Source: Psammoneis japonica (taxonomy: Eukaryota). Taken from it: a stretch of 64,000 nucleotides of DNA. The notes under the pieces are model-generated. The model saw only the letters and a program-made list of their open reading frames with translations. It did not search any database and was not told where the DNA came from. This document shows positions 4,420 through 47,865 of this stretch, in pieces (positions within the stretch are counted from its first letter, which is position 1; each line of letters opens with the position of its first letter). The stretch lies in assembly GCA_008632985.1 (NCBI GenBank), contig QPGO01000119.1, forward strand, positions 186,001 to 250,000. Reading direction: 5' to 3'. The position numbers and the translations under genes were made by a program.

Positions 4420-4509
4420 AAAAAACCCGGTAGACTCTCTAGACACTCTCTCTAGAGTCTAGCAGCTAGAGCTGAGTCTCAAAGGTGAGAAGTGTAACAG
4501 TCAATAGAT

Positions 4510-5845
4510 CGTGCAATCAAGTCGAAGGGGTCAAAAGATCACAAGATCTTCCGCTTTTTTTTTTTCGCGCGAAAGAAAAAAATCAGATCGCCATGACCTT
4601 GCGAATTCCCAGTTATGCTCTCTAGTAGTAGTGGCATGGGGTCAGAATTCCTCATGCATCATGATGCACAAGTAAGATTTCACTAGAAGAATGAACGCTA
4701 TCAAAGAAACTCCACCGTTTGTGGACCATGAAGATGATCCTCCGGAGCAGCAACTCGAGCCTCGAGCACACACAGCACAGAGCCACTTGACAACATGCTG
4801 AACGGAAACGTGGCGACAGAGTACTACAGGACAAACTATGTCGAGAATGAAGTATCATCATCTCCATGGGAGGAACAAGATAATGATGCGTTTTTAATGG
4901 CGTTGCGGGCTACATTCGACAATGGAAGCGAAAATGGTGGTTCGCCACAGCAGGCTCCTCGATCCGTTGTGAGAAGATCGATCGATTTTTCGGGTCTAAA
5001 ACAAGTTCCAGAAGAAGGATCTGAGGACGAGATTGAAACTGGTAAACAAGAGGAAGTAGCGATACATCAAGAAGGCTTTTCAGAGCGAGAAAAAACTGCG
5101 GAGAACAATAATGGAACTGATACTATGCCTACTACAGTCGTTGCATCTACTCGTTCATCTGATCTGACAATACAAAGAACTGGCACGATAGTTTTGACTG
5201 GATCAATCCTACCGCGGTTCGTTTTGGACTTCGGATATCTGCCATCTTGACGGCAAGTTTACTGTTTGTTCTTACGCAGCCACCCGATTCCCAATCGTAT
5301 CCACAAGGCGTTTGTGGGTATATTTCTGCCTGATGATGAGCTGGTTCCCAAACATGACTGCCGCTTCGGTGGGGGAAAGACCTTCCAACGTATTCTCTAG
5401 AGGGACATGCATTGGCGCATCTCTTGGTATTGGAGTGGGGTTTTTGTTCTCGGTGGCAGTGATATCCTTTTTATACTCGTTTGCAACCATTCAGTTCAAC
5501 TCTGCAAGTTGCTGTGCCTATTGATATTTGGTATTTCAGTGGTAATTCGAAATGGAAGAAAAGAGTCTTTAGAGCAATCAAGTTGTCGCAAAATTGGGGG
5601 CATAGGGAGGATTGTCCTTTGCCATTGTCCTGTGGCCAAAACATAACAAAAGAATGTTGCGCGACAAGATTGAAAAGGTACGTTTGGTTTCCTAGTTAGA
5701 AATTGCCATTGATGGCCTGTCGCTCACTCGAAAGCGGAGTTTATCTTCAATCTTTTCTCTGTGAAGCAAGTCAATTTGGCCGGCGATGTATCTCTACTCT
5801 CTAGCTAGTAGAGCTAGAGTTCCCATGCGGCTGACACACAGACTT
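4510..5845 (+). pseudogene. Truncated, frameshifted duplicate of the 5' part of the ALMT/FUSC gene at 10012
   Basis: High similarity to ~9840-11290 (e.g. ATEYY.TNYVENEV.SSPWEEQDNDAFLMALRATFDNGSE). It has frameshifts and internal deletions (including the intron-1 region) and ends near 5845. Confidence 0.85.
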
Positions 5846-6049
5846 CTTGGTGCGTTCGCGCGCAATGAATGATTCAAAGCCGCGATGTTTGGTCGCGATC
5901 GATGCGAACACACTTTTACCGGTATGTCGCACGATCGATGCGAACACTACTACTTTTCAATCTGTTCAACTCACAATGTACACACATTCTACACCTTTAA
6001 TTGCAACCATCATCAACAAACAAGTGTCTGGGATAAAGCAAAAGTAGCA

Positions 6050-7732
6050 ATGCCTGAGCCCAATGAGCAAGAACCACACGCAACTCGCCCCTCTCTGGTG
6101 GAGGACGACTACCATCGGTGCTTGACAGAGCTGGACGATCTGCTTCCCGGAAGCGAACTGGCTGTGTCAACGGAGACACTCATTCCTTTGACGGTGACAT
6201 CTTGCAATCCATCAAGTCTCGTGGAAAAGATCCTCTCCGTAGCAGATGCTTGCCTGGCGCAAAATGACTTTGTTGAGGCTCATTGTTGGTTTCGGTTTTT
6301 GGCAGCACTGAAAGAGCCACATGCAGACAATACCGCCGCAACTATTTCACTCATGTGGCAGGATTCCGGGAAGGTCCATGAGGCGGCAACGGTTTTGAGG
6401 GATGCGAGTATGACTGATCTCTCGCCTGAGCTTCAATCAATTGTGGATGATTCTCAGCAACAGCGAATCGATGCTTGGTCTCGTTCTCAAGTCAGTGGCG
6501 ATCCGTTAGCTCCCTTGCGAGGTGATGTGCAGTCTGTCATTCTCATGCTGCGCAAGCATTTCATTCGACAGACTTTTGCATGGCAGGAAAATCCAGAGCT
6601 CGAGAAAACACGAGCAGAATGTGCCAGTTCGCTCCTAGATATCTTCATGGGTTGGCGCTCTACTGCCATGGGCGACCCATCGAACAAGTTCGGCATTCGG
6701 GGCCTTCTCGATGACACCCCTCATAGTGACGCTATGCAGCCCAGTTGGGACAAGCACGGAAACTTCAACTTTGAAGAGCAACAAAAGGGTGGTTTTCTAT
6801 TCATGAGGTCCCTTCAGGATCCGGGGATACATCCCAATCAAATTGAAAACGCGTTGTACAATGAGCAGTTGCCCGGTTCACAGTTATGCACGGCCAAACT
6901 TTACTCCAAGCCATCGGTCCGCATTCCCTACAGCAAGTTTGTCAGCGTGGGCTCACTTCTAAACATGGATCATCTTGTGCGCTTCCAGGATCTTCCTTGT
7001 TCCTCATTTGTCAGTCAGTGTCATTTTGCTGTTTCTCATAGGTGGCAGTCACCCAAACACCCGGATCCAGACGGAAGTACGCTTCGCCGGCTCAAGTCTA
7101 TTCTGACTCAGGTTGACGGCATTTCATGGGATGACGGTGTTTTCATCGACTACTGCTGCATTCCACAGGATCCGTGCAGTGAAAAGGAAGCTGCGCAACG
7201 CCTTATTGCGTCGTCCTCCATGGACCAGCTGTACAAAAACGCCCATATCATTTTTCTTCCTTCGCAAGACTTTTTTGTTCGTTCTTGGTGCTGGCATGAA
7301 TTTGCTTGTTGGCTGTTCTCGCCGCGACCCACGCAGGCATTGTGCGACCACACGGGCGCCATTTTCAACACGCTGATGGAAGTCAGCCTCTTTCTTTTTA
7401 GAAAGCCAGTGTTTCTTCTCGATCGCGTCGAACTAGATAAATTCGAAGGAGCCTGGGGACTTTCTCATACACAAGCTAGCAAAAAGAATGACAAACATGT
7501 CATTCGAACAATGTGTGCGATGAATGTTCAAGAACAGCCGATGAGCGCATCGCTGATTGAGCTACTCACCACAATCGTGTGGAAATTGGAAACGTATTTG
7601 AGCGTTTCTTCGCCGGTAACCATTCCAAAGCAAGGAGTCGTAAGCACGAAGATGCAAGGTCATCCGGAAGCTGCGCTTACAAGAGAATATCCTGGACTGG
7701 AAGTGGCTTCTGGTTGCTGTGCGATTCTTTAG
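6050..7732 (+). CDS. HET (heterokaryon incompatibility)-like domain protein with helical N-terminus and C-terminal CaaX (CCAIL)
   Basis: Open frame; ATG 6050 is the likely start (frame open from 5885). Motifs AVSHRW..PKHPDPDG, VFIDYCCIPQ, MDQLY and RSWCWHE match the HET-like pattern. Confidence 0.7.
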   Translation: MPEPNEQEPHATRPSLVEDDYHRCLTELDDLLPGSELAVSTETLIPLTVTSCNPSSLVEKILSVADACLAQNDFVEAHCWFRFLAALKEPHADNTAATISLMWQDSGKVHEAATVLRDASMTDLSPELQSIVDDSQQQRIDAWSRSQVSGDPLAPLRGDVQSVILMLRKHFIRQTFAWQENPELEKTRAECASSLLDIFMGWRSTAMGDPSNKFGIRGLLDDTPHSDAMQPSWDKHGNFNFEEQQKGGFLFMRSLQDPGIHPNQIENALYNEQLPGSQLCTAKLYSKPSVRIPYSKFVSVGSLLNMDHLVRFQDLPCSSFVSQCHFAVSHRWQSPKHPDPDGSTLRRLKSILTQVDGISWDDGVFIDYCCIPQDPCSEKEAAQRLIASSSMDQLYKNAHIIFLPSQDFFVRSWCWHEFACWLFSPRPTQALCDHTGAIFNTLMEVSLFLFRKPVFLLDRVELDKFEGAWGLSHTQASKKNDKHVIRTMCAMNVQEQPMSASLIELLTTIVWKLETYLSVSSPVTIPKQGVVSTKMQGHPEAALTREYPGLEVASGCCAIL

Positions 7733-7799
7733 ATAATGCATGTTATAGCCCTACCTTATTCATTTCTGACAGCACCAGACAAGGATTGTAGAAAACGAA

Positions 7800-9660
7800 A
7801 AGAATGGCAAAGAAAATGACAAGAGCCCTGCCGTGTGTTGTGTTGTGGGAAGAGTCAACGTCATGGTCGTGCTCTTATCATTGCGTGCAAATTCAGATGT
7901 CCGCCATCAGGGCGCCACACCGGCACCTGGCAAATGCCCTTTTAGACGGGATGAACCACGGTCGCAAGGTGGCCGCCTGAGCCAAGGCAACTTCATGGCT
8001 TAATTTCACTTGGCTGGTGCATCTGTTTGCCCACACAAATGGTGGTTAAAGTCACTTTTAATGGGGCAATCCTCTTGATCGGCCAAAAAAGCAGGGGAGG
8101 CACAAAGCTCAAAGCGGAGCACTCAACTCCCGCTGACACCAACCACAAACTTTGACAGCATTGAAAAACATCCTCTGTTCATTGAAAGTGCCACACCCTG
8201 TTGCATGGATCCACTTTTGGAAGCCTTTGTGGTGCTGTGAAAGCCGACTGGCACTGGAGTGCATCACAGCATGCCAGCATTGCTCGTTGCCTCCCGCGTC
8301 CCTCTCTGCTCTGCAGCCTGGCTGCTCAACGTGCGTGTTGTTTTTACAAGGGCTTCATGTTGCTCTCAAGTTGTGTCATTGCATTGGACATTGCTGTGAG
8401 CCTGTTGCCATGCTTTCCAAGTCCACCTCTTCTTCTTTTCTTTCAACAGTGCACTGAGCTCCACACACACTCTGGGAAAGTGCTCTGGCACAGGAGAGTG
8501 TGGATGTGCAAGCAGCAACAGCATGGTGCAGCCACCCAATGGCTTTTGTCAACCTTCATCAACATGGCAATTTCAGCAAATGTTGATCTCCCTTTTGAGT
8601 CTGTGCAGCAAGAATGTCAGCCATGTGTCAACATCCTTTGGCTTGTTTCAGCACTGTCTTGTTCTCCCCAGCTGCAGCTCCCACCTTGGCGGGGCTTGGG
8701 GTTGAGAGTTGATTGAAGGTGGTGCCATTTTGGCAAGAAAAGTGGGCAGCATTTTTAGAGCTGGAAGTGGCAGTTCCAACATTGTTGTGTGGTGCCAACA
8801 TTTTCACATTTGCTTCTTGTTGCAGCATGGCACTGCTTCAAGTCAAAAGAAGATGTGGACGTGTTCCAGCTCTAGGTGGGACCTCGTACAACTGAACTGT
8901 GACATCGATAGTTTTTTTGATCGCGTCGTATGTCGCGCACGTAGATTTCTACGTGATTTTTTCGATAGTTTGTGTCATTTTACGGTACACTTATTGAGCG
9001 ATCCGTCCAACAACTTTTGACATTTTTTCTTACAGCGCGATTCTATAATGTCTTAAGAATCGCGTAGGGCAGGCGCATTTGCAAAAACGTCGAGTGGTAA
9101 GAGGCATAATTGTACCACAAACTTGGCCGTTTATTTGATGTTGAAGATAAAAATATCCATTAATTAAATTCTCGTACTACGGAGCTCGCACGTAGAATTC
9201 TACGGGCCCAATGTCACACGGAGTCCCACCTAGGGATGGAACGCGTCTGTGCTGCATCAAAACATTTGCTGGCTCACCTCCAGTGTGCTGTGCCTGCATT
9301 CTTGCCAAAGTCAAAACATCACTTGCTGACTTCCCCAATGGTCACAAAAGGAAATTGTGAAAGTCAACAGAGCACAACCCAGCAGCACAGCACTTTTGCT
9401 GCTGTGATTGCATTTTTTCTGCAAGAACTCGCTGGTGTCTTCCCATTGTCCTTGTCCACTTGTCACTCTGCCTCATGGAAGGAGGCAGTGTTTTGCTTTG
9501 CTGTGCACAGTTGTTTCCAAAGCAAGGTGAGTCTTTTCACACTTGGAAGGTGATGCGCCAATGCAAAAATCAGCATCCACATTTCTTCTTGACAGAGAGC
9601 TTTTTTCTTTTGGGGTTGCATTTTGTGCAAGTGAGTGGTGGTTTTGCAGATCAAATCATC
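7800..9660. repeat. TpA-depleted degenerate block (hosts the MITE at 8872-9233)
   Basis: Near absence of TA at ~8100-8870 and ~9235-9660. Confidence 0.6.
8872..9233. mobile_element. MITE-like element (~360 bp) with terminal inverted repeats; TSD either TA or CTAG
   Basis: ctaggtgggac at 8872 and gtcccacctag ending at 9233; further inverted match tgtgacat/atgtcaca; repeated subterminal cgcacgtaga(t/a)ttctacg at ~8936 and ~9187. Normal TpA content, unlike both flanks. Confidence 0.75.
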
Positions 9661-10011
9661 TTGAGTCTCTCTATGTGGCTTTGTGCTGTAGCTAGAGGTG
9701 TTCTCTCGAGTCATCCTCTACTGTACACTCTCTCCTCTCTACTCTAGAGACAGCTCTCTACCGGTGCTGTGTGGTGTGGCTGGTGGGGTTCGGTGTGCCG
9801 ATCGATTCTTCCTTCGCGGTCGCGAGAGCGAGGGAGAGCTCGCGCGATCAAGTCGAGGGGGTCAAAAGATCTCCTGCTGCTTTTTTTTTTCGCAACAACA
9901 AATCAGAACACCATGACCTTGCGAATTACAGTAAGATCGAACGATACGCCGTCGGCATGAGTTCAGAATTCCTCATGCATCACGAGGCACAAGTAAGATT
10001 TCAATAGAAGA

Positions 10012-11986
10012 ATGAGCGCTATCAAAGAAAATCCACCGTTTGTGGGTCATGAAGATGATCATCCGGAGCAGCAACACGAGCATACAGAGGCACTCGACAA
10101 CATGGGCAGACCCGTGGCGACAGAGTACTACACGACAAACTATGTCGAGAATGAAGTATTATCATCTCCATGGGAGGAACAAGATAATGATGCATTTTTA
10201 ATGGCGTTGCGGGCTACATTCGACAATGGAAGCGAAATTGGTGGTTCGCCGCAGCAGGCTCCTCGATCCGTTGTAAGAAGATCTATTGATTTTTCGGGTC
10301 TAAAACAAGTTCCAGAAGAAGGATCCGAGGACGAGATTGAAAGTGGTAAACAAGAGGAAGTAGCGATCCAACAAGAAAGCTTTTCAGAGCGAGAAAATAC
10401 TGTGGATAACAAAAATGGAACTGATACTGTGACTCCTACACTCGATGCAGTCACTCGTTCATCTGACAATACAAAGAACTGGCACGACAGTTTTGACTGG
10501 GTCAATCCAAACGCGGTTCGTTTTGGACTTCGGATATCTGTCGTGTTGACGGCAAGTTCACTGTTTGTTCTGGCGCAACCACCCGATTCCCAATCGTATC
10601 CACAAGGCGTTTGGGTGTATATTTCTGCCCTGATGGTAAGCTGGTTCCCCAACATGACTGCCGCTTCGGTGGTGGAAAAGACCTTTCAACGCATTTTAGG
10701 GACATGCATTGGCGCATCTCTTGGCATCGGAGTTGGATTTTTGTCTATTCTCTTTCCTGAATTTACGGGGCAGGCCATCTTTATTGGTATGTGCGAGTTT
10801 TATCGACACGACACAGCACTGTAGTGCTCATGCTCATGGTCATGTGTTATTGGTTTCTCGTTGTGAAGGTTTCTCGGTGGCCGTGATATCCTTTTTCTAC
10901 TCGTTTGCGACCGTTCAATTCACCTCTTTAATCTTTGGCAAGTACTCGTATGCAAGTCTGTTGTGCCTATTGACATTTGGTATTTCGGTATTGCCATTCT
11001 ATACCGACGACCATCCGAAATGGAAGAAAGGAGTCTTTAGAGTAATCAATGTTGTCGTTGGATGCACAATTGGTGGAATAGGGAGTATTGTCCTGTGGCC
11101 AAAATCTACAAAAAGAATGTTGCACGACAAGATTGAAAAGGTACGTTTTTTTGGTTTCTTAGTCAGATATTGTCGTTGATGGCCTGTCGCTCACTCGAAA
11201 GGCGATTATCTTTTTACGGTGTAGCAAGTCAAGTTGGCCGGCGAAGCATCCAGGGCTGTACTACTCTTTGCGGCTGACACGCAGACTCGGGGCCAAACGT
11301 TCCGAGCATCTCTTACTTCGGCAGCCGACATGTCCATGAGACGTCATACCAAATCGGGATATGCTGCGGACGACGATGGTGGCGATGCCTTGAACTTTGC
11401 GGCGCACGACAAGTACAATCAAGCATTGGCAGAATGGAAGGGGGTGAGCGGTGTGTTTCCACTTGCCAAGTGGGATCCATTTCTTCGTCTCTGTGGAGAC
11501 CCACAACGAGACGCCGAGTATCGAGAGCAAGTAGCTTTGACTCTGGCACGGGCGTTGCGCATTCAAACAACTGTCGTGATTTTGGATGGACTTGTGCGTA
11601 ACGACCAATCGGTAGAATTCACCTCGCGACAAGTAGAAACGATAAAGAGCATTGGACAATACATCAAGTCCATGTTGACACCACCGTATAATGCAGAGCA
11701 AACCGAATCAGCGGCAGAATTTCTACTCGACCGACTCGATGACATTCGTGAGTTTGTTTCCAACGAGGTCTTGGAAGTATCGGCCGCGTGCAACGCTCAT
11801 CGACGGCTCTTTAGCGGCAGCATGGGCAAAGAAGACTACAAGCGGCGTCTCAGTGATCAAAACGACCAGCTTCCCTTGTTGATTCGATCGCACGATACAT
11901 TGAAGGTTCTTTTCCTCCAACTTGTTGAACACTTGGTCGTGCGTTCCCTTCGATTGTACTACATTTGGCGACAAGTAGAAGAGTAG
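10012..11986 (+). CDS. Aluminium-activated malate transporter (ALMT)/FUSC-family membrane protein, 3 exons (10012-10786, 10869-11140, 11225-11986)
   Basis: GT-AG introns 10787-10868 and 11141-11224 join three ORFs in frame. Motifs RFGLRISVVL, KTFQRILGTCIGASLG and FRVINVVVGCTIGGIGSIVLWP are typical of ALMT/FUSC. Confidence 0.85.
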
Positions 11987-12549
11987 AGCGTTGCGGATGG
12001 GGGTCTGTGCTGTCGTCCTTCTTCGCGGCAAGGCGGATAAACTTGGTAATGGCATCAGAATGTGAACAACGCGAAAAAAGATTGGGTTGCTCCTTCGGTG
12101 CCGACTCCCTAGAAAAGGTTCTTGTTTGGTGCGAGCCACGCCCTAGTCATGAATACCAATGCTGCTTTGGTGGATTGCTCACAGAACCCCTAAGTTCTTT
12201 CCACATCGACTCTGGCTTCAAAGTATGTGGCCATGCCGCAGCATGGGGAGTTTCTTTGGAAAAATTGTCCTCTTCAGAACTACGGTGTTGACAGCTGTTT
12301 GCAACAGCTGTGCCGGAGCTATTGTCGAATGATAGAGATGACCAATGGCCATTGAAATAAGGTCCCAAGTCTCGATGAAGCGATTATAATTGAATGTTCA
12401 GCGATTGGAAGACTGCATGTGTCGAAACAAAGGATGAGATAAAAAACATACAGGTATTGCATGGAAGAGTGGAGAGAGATGTTTTAGATTATTCACGTTA
12501 GAGTTGCCCGTTACTATCTTGCGGCAGGTCAGTTGCATATGGGGACGTT

Positions 12550-13330
12550 CTATGCTTTGTCAGCGCCACAAGTGATGTTAGCCCTCACATTTCTTTGCCT
12601 TTTCAGATGATTCTCTTTATCCCGAAAGTATTTGTAAAGAATAACAAGGCCCAAAAATGCACCAGTAGAGAGAACTATACCTAAAGAAAGGATAGCAGTC
12701 ATGGCAATCTGTAGCTCCAGTCTATCCAGAAGTGCAATTCCAAAAAACAAGAGCCCTAAGAGGTACAGAGGGATACAAAACACTGCACAAAAAAGGGCCA
12801 AACCACACGGAAACTTTGATGCTCCAATGAAAGAACCAACATAGCTTGGAGCAAAGACTATCATTCAATTGTGACCAACAAAAACTGCAATGCTAGATGA
12901 CGTTGCCAGGCAGACCAAACACATAACAATCGCAAACCCTGACGCTGCCACAGACTTGTGGGAGGGCTCACCGATGCTAGGTAGAGAGTTCAATAATGCC
13001 AGCCCCTTCAATAAATCCAGTTACCGCAAAGCCTAACACAAGAACCAATAGATTAGTAAGGCTCGAGTACGCTTCAATTCGATCCTTTGCTTGCTTCTTC
13101 TGACGCTTCCAACTCCGTTTTCCTTGTTGCGCCTGTTATTGACGGTCCCCAGCAAACCGCCGAGTGAGACAACGAAGAACACAATTTTTGCAAAGGCAGA
13201 TGCGACGCAGGACGTTTTTCCAGCTGGGCGAATGGCATTCATTGGGAAAAGATTTTTTTGAAACTTTCAACTTCATTTGAGAGATGCTGTAGAGTTCGCT
13301 TCTTCCCGCACTGTAAAGAGAATGTTCGGA
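12550..13330 (-). pseudogene. Disrupted 4-TM membrane protein gene (Orai/PGG-like hydrophobic pattern)
   Basis: Reads DRIEAYSSLTNLLVLVLGFAVTGFIE, then a stop and frameshift at a CTAG-rich tract (~12976-12988), then SGFAIVMCLVCLATSSSIAVFVGHN*, then two more TM segments (12550-12864). The 5' boundary is uncertain. Confidence 0.45.
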
Positions 13331-17090: not shown

Positions 17091-18480
17091 CTGTTCTGGC
17101 TTTGTGGCAAGACCCCTGGCATGTGCCAGCACAAATGCACAGTCTGCCACCAGAACACTGCTTGCTTGCTGTGCATCAAAACACAAAGCAGTGCTGTGCT
17201 GTGTGTGTTCCTCACTGCACAGCCCATGTGTCACAAAAATGGATTGCACGCACCACACAAGAGACATGATTTGATGGAGAGCATGTTTCACATGCTTGTT
17301 GAACACAGCTCACCATTTGAAATGGGAAAGGTTGCTCAATGCTGCTCAAGCATTTCTCCTTTTTTGCACCAACCGTGTTTTTCACACAAGTCTGCAATTT
17401 GCTCAAAGAAAGCAATCTGGTGGGAGAAATGAAATGAAAACAAACCAGCTTGCAGAGGGAGTGTGCTCACCAGAGAAAGCAGTGTGTTCTCATGCAGTGT
17501 GCAAAAAGCAACTCAGCAAGAACATTTCAAAAGCCCCAAATTCCATGGCATGAGCTGAATGACAAAGAGAGTGTCAACTGATCACCAGCAGCTTCTTTTT
17601 TGTTCCCCAAACATCAAAACACCAAGGAGAAGTGTTTTTGTGAAATTTGGCTGGCAAAGAGAGATGCCGGCATGTGCTGGTGTGTGGCCTTCTAGATCCT
17701 GCAGCCACATTGCCAGTCCTCAAGCACCACAGTGGTGCTGTTTTGTTGCATTGAGGGAAAACATGCCCGCTTAAGCTGGTGTAAAAGAGAACAAAAAATG
17801 CCAGCATTTCTGCAAAATTGATTTGTTGGTGCCCAAGTTCACTGCCTCCCACAGCTGTTGGCACCCCAGCAGTGGAGTGAGACACAAAGAGATGCTGAGC
17901 AACAACCACTTGTCTCAAGCAGCGCAGGGCCTCCTTCTGACAAAAAAAACAATGATTGCAACATCCTGATTGCAGGAATTCTCCAAACAAAAAAGTCAGA
18001 GTGCACAGCAGAGTGTCAAGAATTCCAAGACATGTGAAAGACTCTTGGAAAAGAGAAAAACTGGCATTGTTGTCGTCATGTGTGTGTCACATTGTGATGA
18101 CAGCCACACAGTTTGTGTGCAAAGTTGATGTTCACAACATGTCACACTTGGTTTGGCAGTTTTGGTTCATGTTCTTGCACACTGTCCATTTCTCACTGCT
18201 TTGTGTTTTGCAAATCCCTCCAAAACAAAACAAAATCCCTTTTGGAGCACGCACTTTACCACTAGCTAGTTTTGTTCTCTGCGGCACACCCCATCCTCTA
18301 ACAATAGAGATTTGCGCACTGCCATGTTGGAGATGATTCGACGTGTCTAGAGTAGAGCGTGCTTGTTGCTATACATGCTACCGTATTTGGAATAGGAGAG
18401 GATATATTCAAAACTCGAACATTTTTCGTTTTTGTGCCAAAACAGCATTATAGTAGTATTACACAGTATTACATTTTCTC

Positions 18481-20673: not shown

Positions 20674-20919
20674 ACGAACCAAGAGATTGGTTGTGTAGTA
20701 TGGATTTGTAGTTTTTGTGAGAGAGAGAAAGGTGATTCTTACAAGCTACTGTATTAGTAGATGCGCAAATTAGTATTGAGATTCTAGAAGATTCTGTACT
20801 AGTAGAGCAGAACAGCCGAGGTGGGTTGTTTTTAGTTATTTTATTGAATCGTGCCCGTCATCCTTGTTGTTCCCGCGCAATTTCTACACGGATTCGGTCT
20901 TGTTTGGCATGCATGGCGG

Positions 20920-22195
20920 AACTGCTACAGGTGGGTTGGGAATGGACTACAACTCCCAACTATCGTCATCACACGTGCTCTAACAATTGCTTCTCCAGAA
21001 AAAAAAAGTGAGAAGACTTTTTCTCTTCAAATAGTCTAATGGAGCGGGACAGCGCATTGTGCGGCCTTGTGTGCCCTGCCATCTCTACTAGAGAGTAGCT
21101 AGAGTAGAGAGTACTCTACTAGTAGAGAATACTGATAGAGCTAGAGCTAGAGTAGCAGTGGTAGGTATTAGAGTAGCCCTCTAGCTAGAGATAGAGTACA
21201 GTAGTAGAGAGAGCATCCACGTACGCTCGCCGTCGCTCTTCAACTTTGACGGCAGAGGGACGGACGGACTGCACTGGTGTGGTGGGTCTGTCCATCATCC
21301 ACGCAAATCTGCTCCGAAACGCACTCTAGAGTGGCAGCTGCTCTTTTCAAGAGAAGCGTCAAATGCAGCACAACTTTGATGCTTGGGAGCCCTGACAAAA
21401 CTGTCCAGCCCAATCAACAATGTATCAGACATGGTGCAACCCACAATGACATCTCAGGCACAGCAGGCGGCAGAGCAGCTCCACTCTGCGCCACAAGTGT
21501 GGTGGGAGCGGCAAGCAACACACAAAAGAAAAGAAGACGGCCCCCCAAAAATGCACAGGCCTGTGTTGTTCTCCCAGAAGATCCTGTCCTCTTGTTCAGC
21601 ATGGTTCAACAAGGTTGGCAACAACTGCACCCACCAACATCCTCAGCACAGTGCAGCCTGTTGGAGGTTGTTCCTCCCCCCCCACCAGCAGCAGCTCTTG
21701 TGTCAAAAGAAGAAGTGGTGGTGCACAGTGTGCATGCAGAGCACCACCACAGAGGCACGTGAGACTGAGGCAGCCAACAACACATGTGCAGCCTGTTTTT
21801 GTCAGCAAGTTTGTCTCTGAATGAGTGCAACAACAAGCAGCAGTTGAAGCAGCAGTTTCGCTGCTTTTCATTGAGGAGCCGCCTGTTTTTGGCAGCAAAA
21901 CAAAGTTGAGTTTTCTTCCCAGCAGTTGTGTGCTGGGCACACACCTGCCTAGAAATTTTGGGCAAGCTGGGCACTCTGTCCCAGATTGTTCCTCTCTCAG
22001 AAGCTGCATGTCTCTTTTTCTTTTGTCATCACTCCACTCTTGACTGTCCCTTGGCACTGGCATGTGCAGTTGTTCCAGCAGTCAACAACTGCCCTCTTCT
22101 GAGCCACTGCTTGGTTCTTGTGGATTTTGTGATTGGGTTGCTTCAAGCAGTCATTTCAACATTTGAGGAGTCATTCAATGACACACAAATGACCA
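20920..22195 (+). repeat. Copy 1 of a local dispersed repeat family (other copies ~22675-23135 and ~30830-31920)
   Basis: 20921-21450 aligns with 22675-23135; ~21810-22195 aligns with ~31505-31920; ~21250-21450 resembles ~30830-31060. Confidence 0.8.
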
Positions 22196-24670
22196 TCGGA
22201 TGACAAAACCTGGGGAATTGATCTCAAGTTGGAATCAAAAATGCCGCCCGGCAGTCTCCACATGTGACTGCACTGCGTGTGTCATCAGAAGCTGCCAAAC
22301 AACTCCACTCATCATGACAATGAAATGCAACAGTGTTGGTGCTCTTGCCACCTTGTGCGTGCACACATGGTCACCACAACACAACAGCCAATGACAAAAG
22401 AAAGAACAGGCTTCTTCCTGGCAGCATGAGTGGAAAGTTGTGATTGATTGTTGACGTTGCTTCTGAATGAATTGACAGCAAAACATGCTGCACTTCTTCA
22501 TGGCATTTGCTGCATCTGATGATCTGTGTGTTCATTGTCATGGTCAACTTGTGTGGCTTGTTGGTGATTTGCATGCCACAAGCCTTGGCAATCAACCTGG
22601 GTGAATGTGCCGCATTGTCGTTGGCCTCATCATGGTTGACAACTCAAGAGGTCAGTGAAACTTTCGCTGGTGAGACTGCTGCAGGTGGGTTGGGAATGGA
22701 TTGCAACTCCCAATTGTCATCATCACACATGCTCCAACAATTGCTTTGCCAGAAAAAAAGTGACAAGACTTTTTCTCTTCAATGCAGTGGAGCAGCACAA
22801 CGCATTGTGGCCTTGTGTGCCCTGCCATCTTCCCTGGCTGGAGTGCTCTCTGCTCTCTCCAGCTGCAGGAGCATCCATTGGAGAGAGCATCCATGTGCGA
22901 GTGTGCTCATTGCTCTTCAACTTTGATGGCAGGGGGATGGACTGACTGCACCAGTGTGTGATGGCTGGGTCTGTCCATCATCCACAAATCTGCTCCGAAA
23001 CACACTCCACTCTTTTGAAAGAGAAGCATCAAACGCAGCACAACTTTTGATGCTTGGGAACCCTGACAAAACTGCCCAACCCAATCAACAACAACATTTG
23101 AGATGTCATGGAATCTGGTGCAACCCACAATGACAGCAATTTTTCCTCATGCATGAGCCCCACGCAGAAATCACGCAGAAGAACAATTTTGGCATGACCA
23201 ACAGAATGTAACTTTTCTCACAATGACCCTCAGTTTTGACCATTCGCGTTGTTGGAAAGCTCTTTTCTGTCCTTTTTGGCTGTGTGATTTTTGCAGAAAC
23301 TTTAAAAAAGTCAATTCCCTGGGTTTTGTCATCCAAGGGTTCAAATGTCTGCTCCACACTGTGTGCAGGGCCACACACAGCAGCTTCTGAGTCATCGCAC
23401 TTTGTTGCAACTCAATGCTGATCACTGCACCAACAATGAGATGAAGCTGCAATCTTGACAAGATTCAAAATGTGATGGGGGAAACTTCAATCTTTCCCTT
23501 GACTTCTTTGAACATTGCGCTGTGGGGGGGTCACTCTGTTCTTCAGCAACGAAGGATGAAACTTCTTCTCAGCCTGAAAATGTTTCTTGTTGGTCTTCTT
23601 CCATCATCACCTCAACAGCTTGATCTGTCACCTCTTTTTCCACTTGTTGTGCAGACACTCTCTTTTCCTGACAAGGTGTGGTGGTCTCTCAATGGACAAG
23701 CACCCACTGGGTGCTCCTGACTCTTTGGAGTGTGAAGAAGAATGTTGAGCCGCGTGCAGCAAGTCAATGTTGCTGAAAGGAGGGAATCCCATGTGAGGAC
23801 TCCTGCCCACTTGTTGCACTTGCCTTGGTGTCTCCAGCTGCTGTGGCATGCCTTGGTGTCAGAACAACTTCTGCAACTGCTGTGATGCAGGCATCTCTTG
23901 ATGCTGGTCGACAATCGTGCAAACCAAATGACTCACTCAAAAGAGTGAGAACAAAACACACACATTCTGTCAACATGGATGAGATCATTGAACACAAAGA
24001 AACACTCTTCAAATCCATGTCAGAGATCAAAGATCTTCTCTTCAACACATCCGGGTCACAATGTGATGTCCGGGTCTCTCATGTCACCATTCCAAGAACA
24101 GCTGACAAAGTTGATTTGAGCGTTCCTGAGCTCCTCCTCACACTCCTTTTCTCGTTTTTGTTCTTTTTGCAAGATTTGATGAATTGAGATGGTTCTTGCT
24201 GGCAAGATTTGCAGTTGGATCATCTTCCATCATCTCGATGTCCAATGTCTGAGTTGGCGGCATTGTTGTTTTCATTTGTTTCTTGGTGATCTTCTGGTTG
24301 AAAGAGTGTCATCTTGAGCAAAACCATCATTGCAGGTTTCCTCATGACTTTGGCCATCACTCATTTGATCTTCATTGTCAACAACTGATGCATCATCTGA
24401 CATGGAATTGTCCTTGGCTTTGCTCCTGGTGTTGCAACGAAGGTCTCCATGGTGTGTGTGTGTGACTTCTGTGCAGAATTTGTGTTGTTGGAGTTCTTCA
24501 GCATCCGCTCTTCTTCACGACCTCCTCCTTTGGCAGCCTTGTCAGTTAGATCAATGGGATTTTCTTCCTTTCCATTTTGTCTTCTGCCCTTTTCCTTGTT
24601 GGCACCCTTGCGGGGAGAACCTTGATTCGTCCCGCCAGAGCTGCGGCGTTTGCCTCTTGCCATGTTGCGA
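21330..24670. repeat. TpA-depleted degenerate block, including repeat copy 2 (22675-23135) and a degraded minus-strand ORF starting at 24663
   Basis: TA is nearly absent until ~24680, where normal composition resumes abruptly. Confidence 0.65.
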
Positions 24671-26898: not shown

Positions 26899-26971
<73 letters not shown>

Positions 26972-31840: not shown

Positions 31841-32119
31841 TGCTCTAGAGCTGCTCTAGAGAGCGGATTTTGCGATTGGGTGTCGCTTCAAGCGGTCATT
31901 GGAAGAGTCGTTCAATGACTCAAAGATGTGTCCATTCCACTCAGTGTCGTGCATGTCGTACTGCTTCCGAGTCACGCTTTGGCGCGACTCAACCGGGTCA
32001 CTGCATTGCACCCGCAATAACGTGATGAAGAGGCGATCTTGACAAGATTCAAGATTGAAGATATGGTGAGGGAAAAAAAAAAATCCGTCACACCACAACA
32101 AATCAATGAGATTTTCAAG

Positions 32120-34058: not shown

Positions 34059-34699
34059 TGGAGCCTCGTTTTCCAAATTGGCTTGTGTTTCTCATGACGC
34101 AAAAGGCCTTTCCCCGAAGAGCATTTGTCTCTGTGATCTGAATTACTCCATTTTTGTCCGCCTATTTGGATAACTGTGCCACCGTCCGAGGGATGCAAAT
34201 CATACAGCCTGGTCCATCCGTGAGATGCAGGATGAAATTAATGGACGAGTTCCTCGGAGGACGCTCAAGAGAACGAAACTCTGGCGAGGCTGTAAAGGAT
34301 CTGGAGACTCGTTAACGTTGTTGTCATTCTAGACGATTTTCAAAGAGACAGCCCTCTGGAAACTTTTTCAAGGTTTGCTCTAGAGCTGATTCGTTGACGA
34401 TAGTAGACTGCCTCAAATTGTGAATTCCCACGTAGTCTAGCTACTTTTTGTAGTTCAGTGCATGATAGTCACTTGCTATTCCTCTCAGTTTTCCCATTAT
34501 TGCAGTTGTAACAGAAGATCTTTTGGTCACTGTTTGACGAATTACAGTACCGTACTACCGTTCCGACAATGCGTACAGTTTTGTCTTTTGGAAGAATCGT
34601 GACGCAAATAAGAGCAAGTAACTATCGATCAAAGGTAGCGCGACGTTGGTTCTCCTCAATAAAAGAGTGTCGTGGAAAGCCTTCTCCTGCCAAATGGGA

Positions 34700-35830: not shown

Positions 35831-36530
35831 CGTCGACGTTTACTTCGGATCCGCAGCAAGACTTATGACACGAGCCTCACTGAAGAATGAAGACTGTTCA
35901 GAGCACGGATCAATGTGGCATCGATCCTGCGTGCATGCTCCTCTCTCTCCGTCCTACCCCCCCTGCCAGCTGTTCTCCTTACTCTCCCCAGTTCTGTGCG
36001 CGCAAGCAATAAATGACATGTTGTGCAGTATGGCAAGCAAGGGCATCATGTTGGCGTGGTGGCAGGGAGGATACTGTCTATGAAGTGCGTCCCTCGTCCC
36101 TGCATGTCTGTGTGTTATGTGTGTTTTGTGTTTTGCGTTGTGGTCTTCGCGGTCTATATTGTATGTACTCTAGGGCCCTACCCAGTAGCATCTACTGTAT
36201 GTAGGCTCTACCGTACTGTACAGTACTGGTAGCACGAGGGAGCGAGGGACATATATATTTAAGGAAAAATGTATGGAGGGAGGGAAAACAGTTTCAGCCG
36301 TTTTATGTCCCATGAATTCATTACGTGGAACTTTCGTATGATGGACATGTAATATAAAACGTAGAAAGTCTATGAATGACATTTTAAAAAATCAAAGCAG
36401 ACGAGAATGCGTGCATGCATGATGAAGAGAAAGCAAAGGATGAAGATTGCTTCAAAGCTTCAGCGCACTCAAACAATAGAGAACAGAAAGAACTTACTGT
36501 ACCTTCAGCGGTCATCGCAAACTATTAAAC

Positions 36531-41693: not shown

Positions 41694-43755
41694 TGTCATA
41701 AACCACTTGGCTGTTGTTTTGTGGGTCACCAAACTGTTAATGAATGCACACACACACACACAAAATGCACATGACAATGCATGTTGCATTCACCTCCCCA
41801 ATTGCACATCACAACATCATTCGTCAAAAACGGCACACAACACAATGAATGCTGACAGCCGTCAATGACATCACTGTGTTTGATCTTTGCTGTGCCATTG
41901 GCATGTGTCATTGTCATCACAGCATGCAGCCCTGCATGCGGCTGTTCTAATTTTTGGAAGTGTTTCTCGAGTGGTGTCTTCTCACCTGCTCTGTGGTGCA
42001 TGCATGGAGTGCACAGATCGAGCGTTTTCTTTGGCATTGTCTCCATTTGTGATTTGCTGTTTTTGCTTTTGGACAAACTTCTAATCAGCAACGTGTTGGA
42101 CATTAAAAATCATGTCTCTCTGTTGAAGACTGATTGTCCTGGTGCAGCTTGCACAGTGGCATGATGTGCACAGAAAGCACAGCAAAGGCTGCTGTGGATG
42201 GCACACCACAGAGTGAACAGATCACCAGCATCCAACGGTGAGAATGTTGTGGGTCAAATGCATGCAGCACATTGCCCAGCACTTGATGTGCACATTCTAC
42301 AGTTGTGCTCGACTGTGGATTTTGTGTGGTTGCAGGCTTGACTTTACAGCTCCACAGCCCTCTTCAACCATGTCTTTAAATCAGTGTCTGATGAGCTCAC
42401 TTCCACAGTCACGTGCAATTGACAATGGCCAAGGATGTCTGCTCTCAACCATGTTTGTTCCAACAGTCCAGCTGCAGTTGTGGATTCCTTGTTTGGAATT
42501 TCCACAACTTCAAACCATCTGGTTGCTGGATCAATCATTGTCAAACATTTCAGGGCTGGGGGTTCTTTGTTCTTTCCCTTGCAATGCACTTTGCATGGTC
42601 CAATGAGATCCACACACAGTCATTCCCATGGCACTGTTTCTGCACACTTGGGGGGGGGGGCAAATGTCCAAATGTCTTCTGTTTCTTTTTGAATTTTTGG
42701 CACATCTCACATTTTGACACACGCATTTTTGCATGTCATCATGCAGGGCAGACCACCACAAGTGTTTTGTGAGATGGTGTTTCTTCTGTTCTGTTTGTGC
42801 CAGGGTGAAAAAGGTGAGTGTGACACCAATCTGTTGTCACTGCCTTTTGCAATGTCTTTGGAGTGATGATTTTGTCCTTGTGACATGTGAGCAACCAGCC
42901 TCACTCACCTCCATGAAGAATCTTTGTGTGGTGTGTTGCGCCCGGCAATTTGGAGAGAATGTCTTTGTCCTGCTTTTGTTCAGTGTCAAGAACTTTGCAC
43001 GTCAACAGAAAGACATTGTCGCTGGATTTTGGTGGCAACATTTCAGCTGGTTCTTCATTGCTGAGGTTTTCCACAGGTTCCACTTTTTTCATGGTGAGTC
43101 TGCTGATTGCATTTGCAACAATGTTGGCCTTGCCCTTGAGGTAAATTGGTTTGGGACTGCACTCTTCCATTGTCAGATGCCAGTGCATGACTCTGTCCAT
43201 TGTGAAGTTTGTGTGTGTGAGATTTTTATGATCCATGTGCACATTCATCTGTTGGCCAAACAGCACGTTCCGGAACTCTTTTAACATCTCCACTGTGAAC
43301 AGCAGTTCTTTTTCTTCCATTTTAGCACAACGCATCTGTGCTCCATTCAGCTTGCGGCTGTGGAAAGCAACAGGCCAACTGTTCTGCATGACAACCACTC
43401 CCAATTGAGAATTGCTCGCATCAGCACACATCTCAAAGGGTTTGTCAAAATTTGGGTGTGACAGTGACATGTCTTTGGAGATGATGCGCTTCACATTTTT
43501 GAAGGCTTTTTCTTCCGTTTTGGTCCAATCCCACTTTGCCTGTGTTGAGGTGAGTCTGGCCAAAGGAGCAACAACGTGAGATTGTTGAGGCCACATGACT
43601 CGACAGCAGTTGATCATGCCGACAAAGCGTTGCAATTCTTTGTGAGTTTTCGGAGTTGTGATCTTGTTCTTTTGGATGAGTTTGATGCTCTGCTGAAGTG
43701 CAAGCCTCACCGTAATCCTGCCAATGTCATTGCCCAGTGCCTGAAGAAATGACAC
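41694..43755 (-). mobile_element. Degenerate Ty3/gypsy LTR retrotransposon remnant (RT C-terminus, RNase H, integrase, PPT and LTR start)
   Basis: FVGMINCCR, FDKPFEMCADAS..QLG, VAFHSRKL, EKELL, VHMDHKNL, KGKANIVANAISRL; integrase DLIGP..LTMIDPATRWFE; purine tract at 41789-41799 followed by TG on the minus strand. Confidence 0.9.
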
Positions 43756-43759
43756 GGGG

Positions 43760-44471
43760 ATCTGTTGCAGTCCGTCCTTTGCTCTGTGACTGCATCAGAC
43801 ATGCTGGGCTCTCCGAAGCTGGCTGGCTAGAAGCATGTTTGCAAGAAGATTGCGCAGCTGCAATGGTGGACAAGGACAATGTCCTTGTGACTTCATCATT
43901 GGATGGTGGAAAGGAAGGGTCTGGAAAAGGGCAAGCTGCTCGAGTCAGTTGAACAGCAATTCACGGTATCGTGCACATTCCGCATCATTGACATGCTCTT
44001 GAGACTTTGCGAAGAACACTGCATGCTGATCCATTGCCACAACAGACACCAGTTTTTGCCAAAAACTCTTGAAAGGTAGATGTCATTGTGGAAAAGCTAG
44101 AGAGGGCATGGGCATTGTTGCCGCCCCTCTTCACGGTGGACGAGGGAGTGAGAAGATTGCTTCAGTTACAAGAAGGCTAAGTTGGCATCGTTGTTGCTAA
44201 AGAGCTGACAGCACGAGGTCTCGACTCACCCCTTTTGACACATGTGATCAACTTTGATTCGCCAACAGATGCTTCGCACTACGCTCATCGCACTGGCCGG
44301 TGCGGGTGAGGTGGGAGACCAGGAGTTGTTGTCATCAACTTGACAACCAGTCCCCAAGAACGCAATGTACCGCAAAAGTTTGCCGATCAACTGGGTGTCA
44401 CCATGCATGCTGTTGAACCTCGAAATGGCAAACTTAACATTGTGGATCCTAGCTCACAAGACATAGACTAG
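43760..44471 (+). pseudogene. DEAD-box RNA helicase C-terminal domain pseudogene
   Basis: [24 protein letters not shown] (motif V) and [10 protein letters not shown] (motif VI, with the last Arg replaced by TGA at 44307). The frame ends at TAG 44471. The 5' part abuts the gypsy remnant. Confidence 0.85.
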
Positions 44472-44835
44472 CTAGCTACTGAGAGACACGACGACTACAT
44501 TCGGCACCCCAATAATTGTGCGCCTTTTTGTTGGTCAACTACCGGTACGATAGCAAACTTCGAGCAGCTAGCTAGAGAGAACGCACATCCTTCTTTATAA
44601 GCGCTTTCGGCAATTAAGAGACCACATACATGTAGAAGCAACTAAATTATCGTGCATATCGAACTTTTGTTACGCCATGTCTTCCGCTTCGTTTCTCGCT
44701 CCTCTGATCCATTCTCCTTTTGGATTGACCAAGCAAAGTTGCAGCGTTATGCATACTAATATTCGTAGCCGTGATGAAAGATACGATTCAGCTTCTCCCA
44801 AAGGCCAAAGAACAGCTCCGGAAGAGATTTCACAG

Positions 44836-46098
44836 TTATCCCTTCATGTAAGGCACGATGTGCTTCAAAGCAAATGAACGGATAATTTCATACTGTTCAT
44901 TTTCGTCCACCATATCTAACAGGTCAAGCTCATTGGCTACATCTCTATCGGCAGGAGGCGCAAAGAGGCTCAACATTTCAGTCATGTTCATTGGGGCACT
45001 GCTATTCCCGCGAACGATGCTTTGATTGTTTCGATCTGATTTGCCACCCCTCTGTGAAGAGGCATGTTGGCTTCTTTTAGGTGTTGGAGACTCATCCGAC
45101 CCACCAGCAGGCTTCGCAGCTCCCTCATCATGGCCACTACTTTCAATTCGCGTCTTCTTGCTCGTTGCGACACACTCCAAGGCAGCCTGAAGTGAAATTC
45201 GATTAGCAAAGGTGGCCGGAAGTCTGTCCTCGGGCACGTCTTTGACGAAAAGGCTATTCAGTATGTGTTTTGCCTCTGCCGCTGCGCTTGATCCCTTGAG
45301 ACAGATCTTGTAGAGAGCAGCCGAACCCAAACAATCCTCTCCTCTTGCAAACCAGAAGAAAGTCCATGAGTCGTTCAAATCGGTCAAAACGGAAACCACC
45401 GGACAATGGATATTAAGATAAGAGGCCGCAAAGTGTTCACCAATTGTTTGTGGGGTGTGATCTTTTTCTTGCAAGTTCTGGGGCTTCTTCAATTCAATCA
45501 GAGCTTCAATGTTGTTCCGAATTGCCGCATTGTTAACGTGAACTGATTTTGCGATGACAACATCAGTAGTTCCACGTATTTGTCGACTTTCGGGTTCTGA
45601 TCGAAGGAAATGTACCGTCAACAGGTCCCTATCTGGCTGCACATCTGCTAATGCATACTCCACTGGTTTTTGTATGAAGGCATTGAGATGAGCCATATAC
45701 CCTTCACGATTCTCGTCAGAATCTTCGTTACTTTTTAACCACAAAAACCCATCGACATGCTGCCCTGACTGCGAAACAGCAGTTCTATCTCTCCAGCCAG
45801 CCCCTTTCTCTTGCATATTCAGCATATCCATCAGGTCATTTTTCGTTGAACTAGTTGCTCCAGAAAGTACAATTGTCCTTTTTCTTGTTTGATAATCCGT
45901 TGCAAACTGTGCAAGACCAGCAACGGTTTCTTCGGAGAATTGCTTCGGGGACGGCGCCTGCTGTTGCTGCTGCTGAAATTGGGTCAGTAAAGTTCGTCGT
46001 TCAACAGGTCCAAGTCCATTGTACTCTTCAGCTGTCATGGCCTCCAGAAGCCATGACTTGTAGGCATCATCAGTTATTCGGGCCCAAGGAGCCGACAT
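44836..46098 (-). CDS. Crinkler/CR-effector-like protein with a probable PD-(D/E)XK restriction-endonuclease fold
   Basis: Intact ORF from ATG 46098. GTTDVVI...IELKK...Q..GE....S...VVSVLTDLNDSWTFFW pattern. Confidence 0.6.
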   Translation of the reverse strand: MSAPWARITDDAYKSWLLEAMTAEEYNGLGPVERRTLLTQFQQQQQQAPSPKQFSEETVAGLAQFATDYQTRKRTIVLSGATSSTKNDLMDMLNMQEKGAGWRDRTAVSQSGQHVDGFLWLKSNEDSDENREGYMAHLNAFIQKPVEYALADVQPDRDLLTVHFLRSEPESRQIRGTTDVVIAKSVHVNNAAIRNNIEALIELKKPQNLQEKDHTPQTIGEHFAASYLNIHCPVVSVLTDLNDSWTFFWFARGEDCLGSAALYKICLKGSSAAAEAKHILNSLFVKDVPEDRLPATFANRISLQAALECVATSKKTRIESSGHDEGAAKPAGGSDESPTPKRSQHASSQRGGKSDRNNQSIVRGNSSAPMNMTEMLSLFAPPADRDVANELDLLDMVDENEQYEIIRSFALKHIVPYMKG

Positions 46099-47865
46099 GG
46101 TCGTGTGGTTGTTGTTGTTGCTGTTGTTGGAGCTCTCTTGTCGCTCTATCACTCTAGCTAGAGATCGATGTCTTAAAATTCAACACATCGCGGCAATGAA
46201 GGCAAGCAAGGCGCGGATTACGGTAGCACGTACATTTCGCGCGTACAGCACCCCGTTTCACCACGGTTCAACTTACGTGCGGTGGTATTAGCGTCGAATC
46301 ATATGACTAAAAATATTTCTTGTCAATTACAGACGATATCCCTGCTCATTACCGGCATGCACAGAAACGCGCAGCGAGGTCCTGAGCATTTTCGATGGCA
46401 CAGAACCTTGCCACGGGTTTCTGTGCCATCTACGACAAAGCTGCGTAGATTTGTACCGAAAAAAATCTGAGAACATTTTGGGATTGTTTTGAATTGCAAT
46501 GTTCACATTTAACTCACCTTGAATGTTCGAAAGAGACAATGTTCCAGCTGTTGGTTCAACAAGATGAACAGACACGATGACAGGATTTGAACAGGATTCA
46601 GGTGCGCGCGAAATGTCGCACGCTGTTTAGTTTGCCGCGCACAGTTTTGTGTGCTTTGGTTCCGCGCGTTCGCGCGCGATGCAGTTTGCTTTCGAGCCAC
46701 AAGGCTCACAAGAACAATGACAGTGGCCCGATCATGCCGACTCACACGTCTTTCGGCTCCTGCAACGGTCTCTGAGCGGAGACTCATCTGCTGTTTAGAC
46801 AGCAGCAAGGAGTTGTTGTTTGAATTCTTGCCATTTGCCTTCAATTTCTGTCAGATTGACAGTCTTGCTCATTGTCAACCCATTGAGCAACCGCCATCAT
46901 CGTCGTTGATTTACCAACGATGCCACTTCAATCCTGCGTGGACCTCCGTGTGTGTCCCACACACATCGGCAAGTCTGCGCGCATTCAATGCCAGGGCATC
47001 GGCAGGAAGTTAACGTCACCGTCAAGTCTCCTTGCCGCTGGACATCTGGATTGATTGCACCACCTTTGATCGCTGAAGACACACACTCAACGGTCACATC
47101 CAAGTCTGCCCTTGATCCTCATCCCTTGATGTGCCTGTTCATCGGTTGACGGTCAAGAACCCTGCACATTCAAGGATCTTCGTCGCTGAGGACATGCACA
47201 CACACACACATGTCTTCACGGCCAAGAACCTGCACCCACTCTTCGGACTGTGGTTTTGCCACCACTCCACAAGCACACCGAGTCCATTGCACCTGATCCA
47301 CCCCAGACTGCTGGTGCTCCACAGTTCTGCCAGGTCCACGAGGACGACTGTGAGAGCAAGCAGCCGTGATTGCAGCCTGCGTTGGGGCGAGGGTGCTTTC
47401 CCGCATTTGTTCGTTCGTCCACAGTGCCTGGCGCCTGCATCAACTGGCCAGCCTGATCGGGAAATCCAACCGACATAAAACAAGAATGGTTCGGGGGTCT
47501 TGTCCACCTCTGGTCAGCTTGCCTGCAGGGGTTTGCAACCTGCTGCTCCGCTCGCAAGCAACCCAAAGCGCCGCTGGCTGTGGGTTCGGACGTGCTGGCA
47601 CAACTCTACGGACTGGATGGGAAGTTTAGCACTTGACAACGAATGGGGTGGCACAACCCGGCGACTTCTGATTTTAAGATGGTCCAAGATTTCAAGTCAA
47701 GTCTAGCTCAAGTCACGTCTTTTTCAAGCCAAGTTCCAAGTCAAAACTCCGAGTCAAGATCGCGCTCTAGATTGGTTCCTGTCTTTTGTTTCTACTGCAC
47801 CGTCCTCCGTCATGGTTCTCACGTGACAGCAACAAACCGAAAGCTTCAAATACATTCTAGGCACT

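Follow-up and report, generated by a model that had tools for sequence, protein, structure and literature searches.

Ordered CTAG prefixes and suffixes build aperiodic tracts in the genome of the diatom Psammoneis japonica

How do short, aperiodic tracts assembled from CTAG, TAGAG and CTCTA come to lie at many places in a diatom genome, sometimes where a duplicated copy has ordinary sequence? The question is raised by a 64-kb stretch of Psammoneis japonica (GenBank assembly GCA_008632985.1, 91 Mb; contig QPGO01000119.1, here C119, positions 186001–250000 of the forward strand), referred to below as the window. An earlier note, made from the letters of the window alone, listed 13 such tracts and attributed them to a sequence-biased process, namely non-templated or snap-back DNA synthesis during break repair. 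We find that the tracts are generated by one rule: any number of CT or CTA pieces, then CTAG, then any number of AG or TAG pieces, with occasional doubling of CTAG.

All 13 tracts were found at their listed positions, and the pieces CTAG, CTA, CT, TAG and AG make up 65–100% of each, against 25% of the whole window. For wider counts we used a Markov-based caller (16-bit threshold) trained on these same tracts. The tracts at 12976, 18260 and 18346 are short, one-sided and below its threshold; the tract at 4618 also falls below it, yet it is a two-sided CT..CTAG..TAG event. The caller picked out 52 tracts on C119 (260 kb scanned) and 18 on contig C3 (200 kb), 70 in 460 kb altogether, against 0–1 in each of six local Markov simulations, and genome-wide TAGAGCTAGAG gave 313 matches versus 43 for its reversed control. 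The earlier note had asked for verification in raw reads; the evidence comes from DNA unitigs and spliced-transcript contigs of one sample, which is possibly the assembly's own source. Unitigs of ~60x depth cross the tracts at 4430, 4618, 5791, 9688 and 12976, with no difference listed inside any of them, and spliced contigs cross 5791 and 12976, again with no in-tract difference listed; no empty alleles were seen in the reads of this single sample. Because of the excess over simulation, the spanning DNA and RNA-like contigs and an old tract at 22831 whose TA dinucleotides have been erased, the tracts are biological, and are neither assembly artefacts nor recent ones.

The vocabulary consists of prefixes of CTAG (CT, CTA, rarely C) on the 5' side and suffixes (AG, TAG, rarely G) on the 3' side, and the grammar is strand-symmetric. 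The whole genome contains 332 copies of CTCTCTAGAGAG, compared with 9, 34 and 15 of the rearranged palindromes GAGAGATCTCTC, AGAGAGCTCTCT and TCTCTCGAGAGA. Among the 16 palindromic 4-mers, plain dinucleotide microsatellites aside, an excess of prefix and suffix duplication was found only at CTAG (8.7-fold for CTCTAGAG and 29-fold for CTAGCTAG). The 5' side is CT-rich on both strands (93 of 144 tract ends, versus 31 with the opposite arrangement), and among the 51 runs of 6–10 pieces, 30 have all prefixes ahead of the suffixes, where 6.7 are expected and 6 show the reverse order. Two-sided events number 88 in 660 kb, compared with 1–13 in six simulations, a density that extrapolates to roughly ten thousand such events in the genome. 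Their two arms are independent, being identical in 21 of the 88 events against 17 ± 3 expected.

The choice of the next base branches stochastically (after CTACTCT, 79 C versus 79 A), and more than two CT between CTA pieces are rare. This rarity raised the possibility of a single master template such as CTACTCTCTAG, which is rejected on account of the branching and because other diatom loci prefer CTA-CTA. The earlier note had named alignment to one transposable-element or satellite consensus as the result that would speak against its reading; the tracts fit no such consensus. Many of the longest strings common to tracts are (AG)n or (CTAG)n, and the excess of shared 22-mers (18 pairs versus 1–4) also consists partly of these plain runs. 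The idea of a sequence-biased process thus stands insofar as the tracts are derived, biased insertions and replacements; what it missed is the rule of ordered CTAG prefixes and suffixes and the role of pre-existing CTAG.

About 41% of the 660-kb sample consists of TA-depleted blocks, a depletion that resembles the TpA hypermutation of Bigelowiella, as far as the accessible part of that report goes (10.64898/2026.01.13.699255). Among 100 tracts in this sample, 77 lie in non-coding DNA of normal TA content (30% of bases), 19 in TA-depleted blocks (41%) and 4 in long open reading frames (ORFs; 29%). Tract events are clustered (30 of 70 have a neighbour at 60–500 bp, versus 6–15 at random) and lie near genes: within 600 bp of long ORFs, 16 of 51 events were counted on the upstream side and 21 of 51 on the downstream side, where random non-coding sites reach ~20% on either side. 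The suggested closeness to block borders did not hold, as 14 of 81 tracts are ≤250 bp from a TA-depleted block, compared with 15% of random non-coding positions.

The tracts of the window are as follows (window coordinates):
4430–4476, compound tract of CTAG pieces upstream of ALMT copy A, which is truncated; its two-sided core is 4446–4457; a DNA unitig spans it with 0 differences
4618–4631, CT CT CTAG TAG TAG in the ALMT copy A leader, where the sequence of paralog B is ordinary and contains no CTAG
5395–5402, CT CTAG AG in the coding sequence of ALMT copy A (a net gain of 4 nt), opposite a Leu TTA codon of copy B at ~10700
5791–5826, 33-nt tract in place of 18 nt of ALMT coding sequence, ~30 bp before homology to copy B stops; present in a spliced contig
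9688–9765, compound tract, now eroded, upstream of ALMT copy B, with its core at 9735–9749; spanned by a DNA unitig
12976–12988, one-sided CTAG G TAG AG AG at the stop of a broken minus-strand membrane-protein frame
18260–18270, CTAG CTAG, a duplication-type site below the caller threshold
18346–18358, one-sided CTAG AG TAG AG, 3' of the ETF-beta gene
20783–20808, eroded tract on the 3' side of a gene for a membrane protein; missing from the partial duplicate at ~26680
21083–21212, compound tract, the longest of the window (130 nt, 122 bits), including a TACAGTA footprint word
21324–21331, CT CTAG AG continued by a partly TA-eroded stretch; exceeds the duplicate at ~23005 by 12 nt
22831–22908, a different, TA-erased tract at the site homologous to 21083
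31843–31863, two cores, each CT CTAG AG, on the edge of a TA-depleted block; no such tract at ~22115
34378–34385, minimal event CT CTAG AG, an addition to the 13 listed earlier
36159–36233, tract between two genes in which CTAG pieces are mixed with Tc1-type footprint words, likewise an addition
44461–44486, CTAG CTAG CTA CT tract
44536–44580, TACCGGTA word followed by CTAG CTAG AG AG
46151–46165, CT CTAG CTAG AG directly upstream of a minus-strand ORF

The TA-erased tract at 22831–22908 indicates that tracts are older than the hypermutation, and that one site can hold differing tracts. At ~12980, where a stop and a frameshift had been reported, the stop is confirmed in that it ends one minus-strand frame, which a second hydrophobic frame overlaps; the frameshift is unproven, because a genome search for an intact homolog returned only the gene itself. 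A plus-strand spliced contig from ALMT copy B (11223–13016) runs antisense over this broken frame. Another spliced contig, covering 5285–7755, fuses the truncated ALMT copy A with an unrelated downstream ORF of 615 aa across the 5791 tract.

Comparison of empty and filled sites in duplicates confirmed that tracts replace ordinary sequence at 5791 (versus ~11250), 4618 (~9935) and 31843 (~22115), as the earlier note had read them, although the partner at ~22115 is itself TA-eroded and only ~67–73% alike. The site at 5395–5402 (versus ~10700) is an additional replacement; a synonymous CTA form of the Leu TTA codon of copy B could have yielded a CTAG seed there. In copies that are ~88–96% alike, tract gains occur mostly at a CTAG that was already present. 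They comprise +CT (C119 93350; contig C10 55604), +AG (locus L100 versus L101; L248 versus four family copies), +CTAG (metagenome alleles L110/L126) and a gain of 13 nt (C119 93191), and one tandem duplicate (L123) shows plain CTAG beside an expanded tract. Gains in close pairs include 2–4 bp tandem duplications (+CT, +AG, +TAG, +CTAG), and these events are few. Such filler is lacking at most indels between duplicates: one clear case was found among 39, and 14 of 128 in a second count. Since most duplicate indels are unrelated to the grammar, the tracts are not fillers of every breakpoint.

The reading we favour, while giving it somewhat less than an even chance, is that the tracts are scars of repeated staggered breaks at CTAG that were filled in and rejoined by end joining. 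A 4-nt staggered break at CTAG, or a nick 5' of C on one strand, would be followed by trimming of one overhang by 0–2 nt, fill-in by Pol X and Ku-dependent ligation. The product would be +CT, +CTA, +AG, +TAG or +CTAG, with CTAG itself kept; since CTAG would be intact after repair, it could be cut again, often in bursts. Prefixes would then accumulate to the left and suffixes to the right of CTAG, a doubled CTAG would provide two growth points and be the source of AGCT junctions, and resection of some breaks would give replacements and small duplications. A simulation of this rule with 10–20% CTAG doubling brackets, or in one case closely approaches, the observed transitions: PP 0.24–0.32 (observed 0.29), XP 0.015–0.034 (0.036), XX 0.02–0.06 (0.04) and SP 0.05–0.08 (0.06). 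The reading is further backed by the genome-wide excess of CTCTCTAGAGAG, the duplication excess at CTAG, the order of the pieces, the two-sided events with independent arms, the seeded gains in close copies and the presence of Ku and Pol X. The grammar, the gains at existing CTAG, the scarcity of tracts in long ORFs and the TA erasure of old copies are observed directly, whereas the breaks and their repair are inferred.

Several observations weigh against re-cutting at CTAG. A simulation of de novo tailing matches the same transition table, and runs of five or fewer pieces are unordered (35 versus 35 of 80). Insertions were found at 7 of 191 CTAG versus 35 of 2663 other TA-containing 4-mers (p=0.02), but these 7 reduce to 4 distinct events, 3 of them of CTAG grammar; similarly, 6 of 76 small indels touch CTAG where ~1 is expected, and contain 4 distinct grammar events. 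The seed enrichment is therefore weak once duplicate counts are removed (3–4 distinct events). Filler without a seed is seen at 4618 in the window, at C10 87518 and at contig C36 96335, in spanning alignments 70–76% alike, as well as between duplicated arms at L031; at C10 55209 TAG was doubled without C, and in a C10 array CTAG was gained at a GTAG site. CTAG is no more avoided in ORFs than TTAA. As for a CTAG-specific cutter, no CTAG-flanked ends were found at 16 piggyBac loci, where a CTAG target was sought, or at 25 Tc1 loci, in windows that often stopped short of the element's end.

By analogy, the nearest known maker of 4-nt 5' overhangs is Top2; the cutter may also be a transposase or a nuclease. 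In the accessible parts of two studies (Stantial et al., 10.1101/2020.05.03.075358; Boot et al., PMC8795545), 4-nt 5' overhangs that are trimmed, filled by Pol4 and ligated by Ku/Dnl4 give 2–4 bp duplications, initiated by yeast Top2-FY,RG and, in humans, seen as ID17/ID_TOP2alpha. The diatom resembles this system in its tandem gains of 2, 3 and 4 bp and in the presence of Ku and Pol X. The known events, as far as those sources describe them, are single, weakly sequence-specific and due to mutant, overexpressed or drug-trapped enzymes, whereas the diatom tracts are fixed on CTAG, iterated to aperiodic tracts of 10–280 nt and apparently normal across diatoms. Top2 specificity is weak at most, with AGCT the commonest site in the human data (available portion of PMC8795545), which also counts against Top2-like re-cutting; because strong CTAG specificity conflicts with this weak specificity, we set the tracts apart from that family, and the likeness to Top2 is best taken as an analogy.

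Of the routes named in the earlier note, snap-back synthesis is rejected as the main one because the arms are independent and flank copies are no commoner than in controls: upstream reverse-complement copies number 126 against 123 ± 9, a non-token copy of flanking sequence was found for 2 of 97 tracts versus 2–8 in controls (one clear snap-back copy, on C36), and the longest match to a tract's own flank equals that to other flanks. Templated insertions by Pol theta and fillers by terminal transferase are junction inserts accompanied by loss of flanking bases. The diatom tracts are like them in inserted sequence, flank loss and the C36 copy, and unlike them in that flank copying is rare, one vocabulary is fixed and no POLQ was found. 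No Pol theta was found in a search with an imperfect control: all nine Pol A candidates were scored, and of 11 matches the 10 that were read are organellar-type polymerases, Pol I-like N-terminal sequences, a MutS-like gene or unassignable, with a weak match at C78:358174 remaining; a POLQ_helical profile, run with no positive control, gave 0 matches. Organellar-type Pol A occurs as a tandem duplicate on contig C17, with a stop in one of the two copies, and in degenerate form on C53. Telomerase addition at breaks produces short repeated words with strand polarity. The telomere here is TTAGGG (arrays; 305 matches, one at the end of contig C108), from which the tract words differ, and the piece beside the left flank is CT or CTA rather than a G-strand repeat, so that telomerase-like addition is not borne out.

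Enzymes of end joining are present as Ku (two matches) and one Pol X. The Pol X locus (L098, contig C125 ~135600–138800) has a DIK motif and a long, variable Loop1, the element that governs untemplated activity in Pol X enzymes. The named matches of its group are diatoms and Triparma, and diatom Pol X proteins carry a variable insert of ~30–40 aa at Loop1. Its best structure matches are Pol lambda and its FTG-type motif is lambda-like; its alignment to Pol mu/TdT chains is unbroken and of equal length, and alignments to Pol lambda break at Loop1. Among the top structure matches of a close relative are the Pol lambda entries 9EWB–9EWG, with the same DIK motif.

The sequence bias could instead lie in the joining step. 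An end-joining polymerase, such as the long-Loop1 diatom Pol X, may add CT, CTA or CTAG to any broken 3' end, both tails then annealing through the self-complementary CTAG, with many of the breaks coming from transposon excision. We consider this tailing possible but unlikely. It accounts for the polarity and the independent arms as well as the transition table, it suits the at least three pairs without a seed, and the gain of several pieces at a single site between close copies points to single episodes; Tc1-type footprint words lie ≤30 bp from 24 of 88 events versus 6–7% of controls, and the single Pol X with its variable insert, its unbroken alignment to Pol mu/TdT and its diatom and Triparma matches, next to no Pol theta found, also speaks for it. 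However, pairs above 88% identity are mostly seeded and the unseeded pairs are the most diverged, the Loop1 sequence is not conserved among diatoms, and the two insertions in mutation-accumulation lines were GGC and ACA. Within the visible part of supplement 4 of PMC12921017, such filler was seen by eye in none of the 12 Cas9 alleles of P. tricornutum and in none of its 7 episome junction reads, 4 of them partly visible; as no CTAG was seen at the Cas9 cut, these alleles are no test of re-cutting. Products without a genomic template are known from untemplated polymerase 'doodling' in vitro, in which Vent makes CTATAG repeats (available text of PMC13061963), and DRT7 DNA is described as protein-templated. 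Both, to the extent described, are low-complexity palindromic DNA like the tracts, but they are periodic and in vitro or extrachromosomal, and CTATAG junctions are almost absent from the diatom tracts. The fullest form of tailing, in which diatoms, possibly without Pol theta, use a lineage-specific Pol X to write CT, CTA and CTAG untemplated on broken ends that pair via a CTAG adapter, leaving some ten thousand scars, is distinctly doubtful. Judged from its sequence, the long-Loop1 Pol X is a candidate under tailing and re-cutting alike and proof of neither.

It seems improbable that the tracts are stacked Tc1/mariner footprints, repeated insertion and excision at TA leaving TA-x-TA scars that pile up. 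Excision of Tc1/mariner and pogo elements leaves footprints such as TA-CAG-TA and TA-CCGG-TA, and such words are found inside and next to the tracts and also as alternative alleles at a single TA: in a short tandem array at C10 ~78800–79720, a natural series of excision scars, one TA appears in different units as TA, TA-CTG-TA, TA-CCGG-TA and an eroded TA-GC-TA. TA-flanked elements starting CCGG, CCGT, TT and GGC exist, and footprint words occupy 64 of 908 TA in tracts versus 131 of 10059 outside, a partly circular comparison. The CT and AG pieces, on the other hand, match no element ends found, +CT and +AG gains leave TA unduplicated, only 14 of 112 outer arms starting with CT come after TA, and no GAG-ended element was found in the ~0.9 Mb searched. 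A simulated element, CTC-ended only, yields hardly any CT-CT and lacks CTAG-CTAG, for which the tracts show 0.124 and 0.041. TA duplication around 1–4 nt of element end holds for the TACCGGTA, TACAGTA and TACCGTA words and not for the CT/AG pieces; transposon scars explain the former and not the latter. As Tc1-type footprints are common and co-located with tracts, transposons land in or break at the same places. We give little credence to break-free growth from a CTAG seed, whether by replication slippage or by hairpin-driven expansion as in a microsatellite. Tandem duplications do make up 35 of 76 small indels between duplicates, alleles vary inside tracts by units of CTA or CTAG, plain (AG)n and (CTAG)n stretches are present, and long palindromes are modestly in excess at AGCT (17 versus 5.6) and CTAG (14 versus 8.1). 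Generic slippage nevertheless gave 0.30 for CT-CT (observed 0.12) and 0.028 for CTA-TAG (observed 0.001), the remaining palindromic 4-mers that are not microsatellites grow little or not at all, and replacements with loss of flanking bases count against it because such losses need breaks. Hardly credible is the last pair of alternatives, that the tracts are regulatory elements kept by selection near genes, or that they are an artefact of assembly or library. Events do lie near genes, and three paralog pairs retain tract-like sequence at the same site, but there is no upstream bias, the grammar has no strand preference and coding copies are disrupted by tracts. An artefact is close to excluded, given the tracts in independent DNA and RNA-like contigs, their TA-erased old form and their presence in other organisms' assemblies.

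Some mobile elements and repeats were observed alongside. A miniature inverted-repeat transposable element (MITE)-like sequence at window ~8860–9250 has a very high copy number (summed unitig depth ~179,000 versus 64); it ends in a long terminal inverted repeat, and 4 bp of target appear to be duplicated. Another copy, at 96%, is found at C119 137163–137546. The element was rejected as an explanation of the tracts, since its CTAG is internal to the long terminal repeat and the 4 bp that seem duplicated are unrelated. Small inverted-repeat elements, either TA-flanked (ends CCGG, GGC, CCGT) or TTAA-flanked, were found at L105 127–631, L026 865–1429, C119 46169–46783 and L028 726–1127. In a Tc1-type family (L239, L243, L244, L246, L247, L248), tract or footprint words precede the terminal TA in ~4 of 6 copies, which suggests that it inserted into old scars. 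A 42-bp tandem repeat of ~30 copies occupies window 48655–49921, in a long open frame of a TA-poor region.

The grammar extends beyond this genome. A pattern scan of metagenomes gave 90 matches in 50 distinct loci, mostly of the same grammar and beside eukaryote-type genes; the L143 cluster and L177, non-tract or AT-rich, were excluded from the counts, and the order count of 30 of 50 is biased, the search pattern itself having prefix-suffix order. Genes on two of these loci cluster at 90% with proteins of P. tricornutum and Chaetoceros neogracilis, and the named matches of a third are nearly all diatoms. The tracts thus appear to be present on pennate and centric diatom contigs, while a limit to diatoms is not established from three assigned loci; grass genomes, too, may contain CTAG/AGCT repeats. 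Prokaryote genomes gave 3 matches, two of them in a CRISPR-like repeat array, and viral contigs gave 7, of which the 3 read are not tracts. Metagenome loci L111/L145/L149/L161/L184 and L167 contain 300-bp stretches that are free or nearly free of TA, a hint of TpA erasure in further diatoms. No account of these tracts was found in the literature covered, which mostly excludes subscription papers, and the mutational grammar of the tracts, which is real and simple, is apparently undescribed.

The process behind this grammar inactivates gene copies and reshapes DNA near genes. It suggests either a CTAG-specific cutter or a polymerase that writes a fixed sequence; if tailing were true, it would be a sequence-writing end-joining pathway able to join any two ends. 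As TpA hypermutation erases old tracts, they could help to date the silencing of repeats. The one-line generative rule makes this break-repair signature directly testable in Phaeodactylum.

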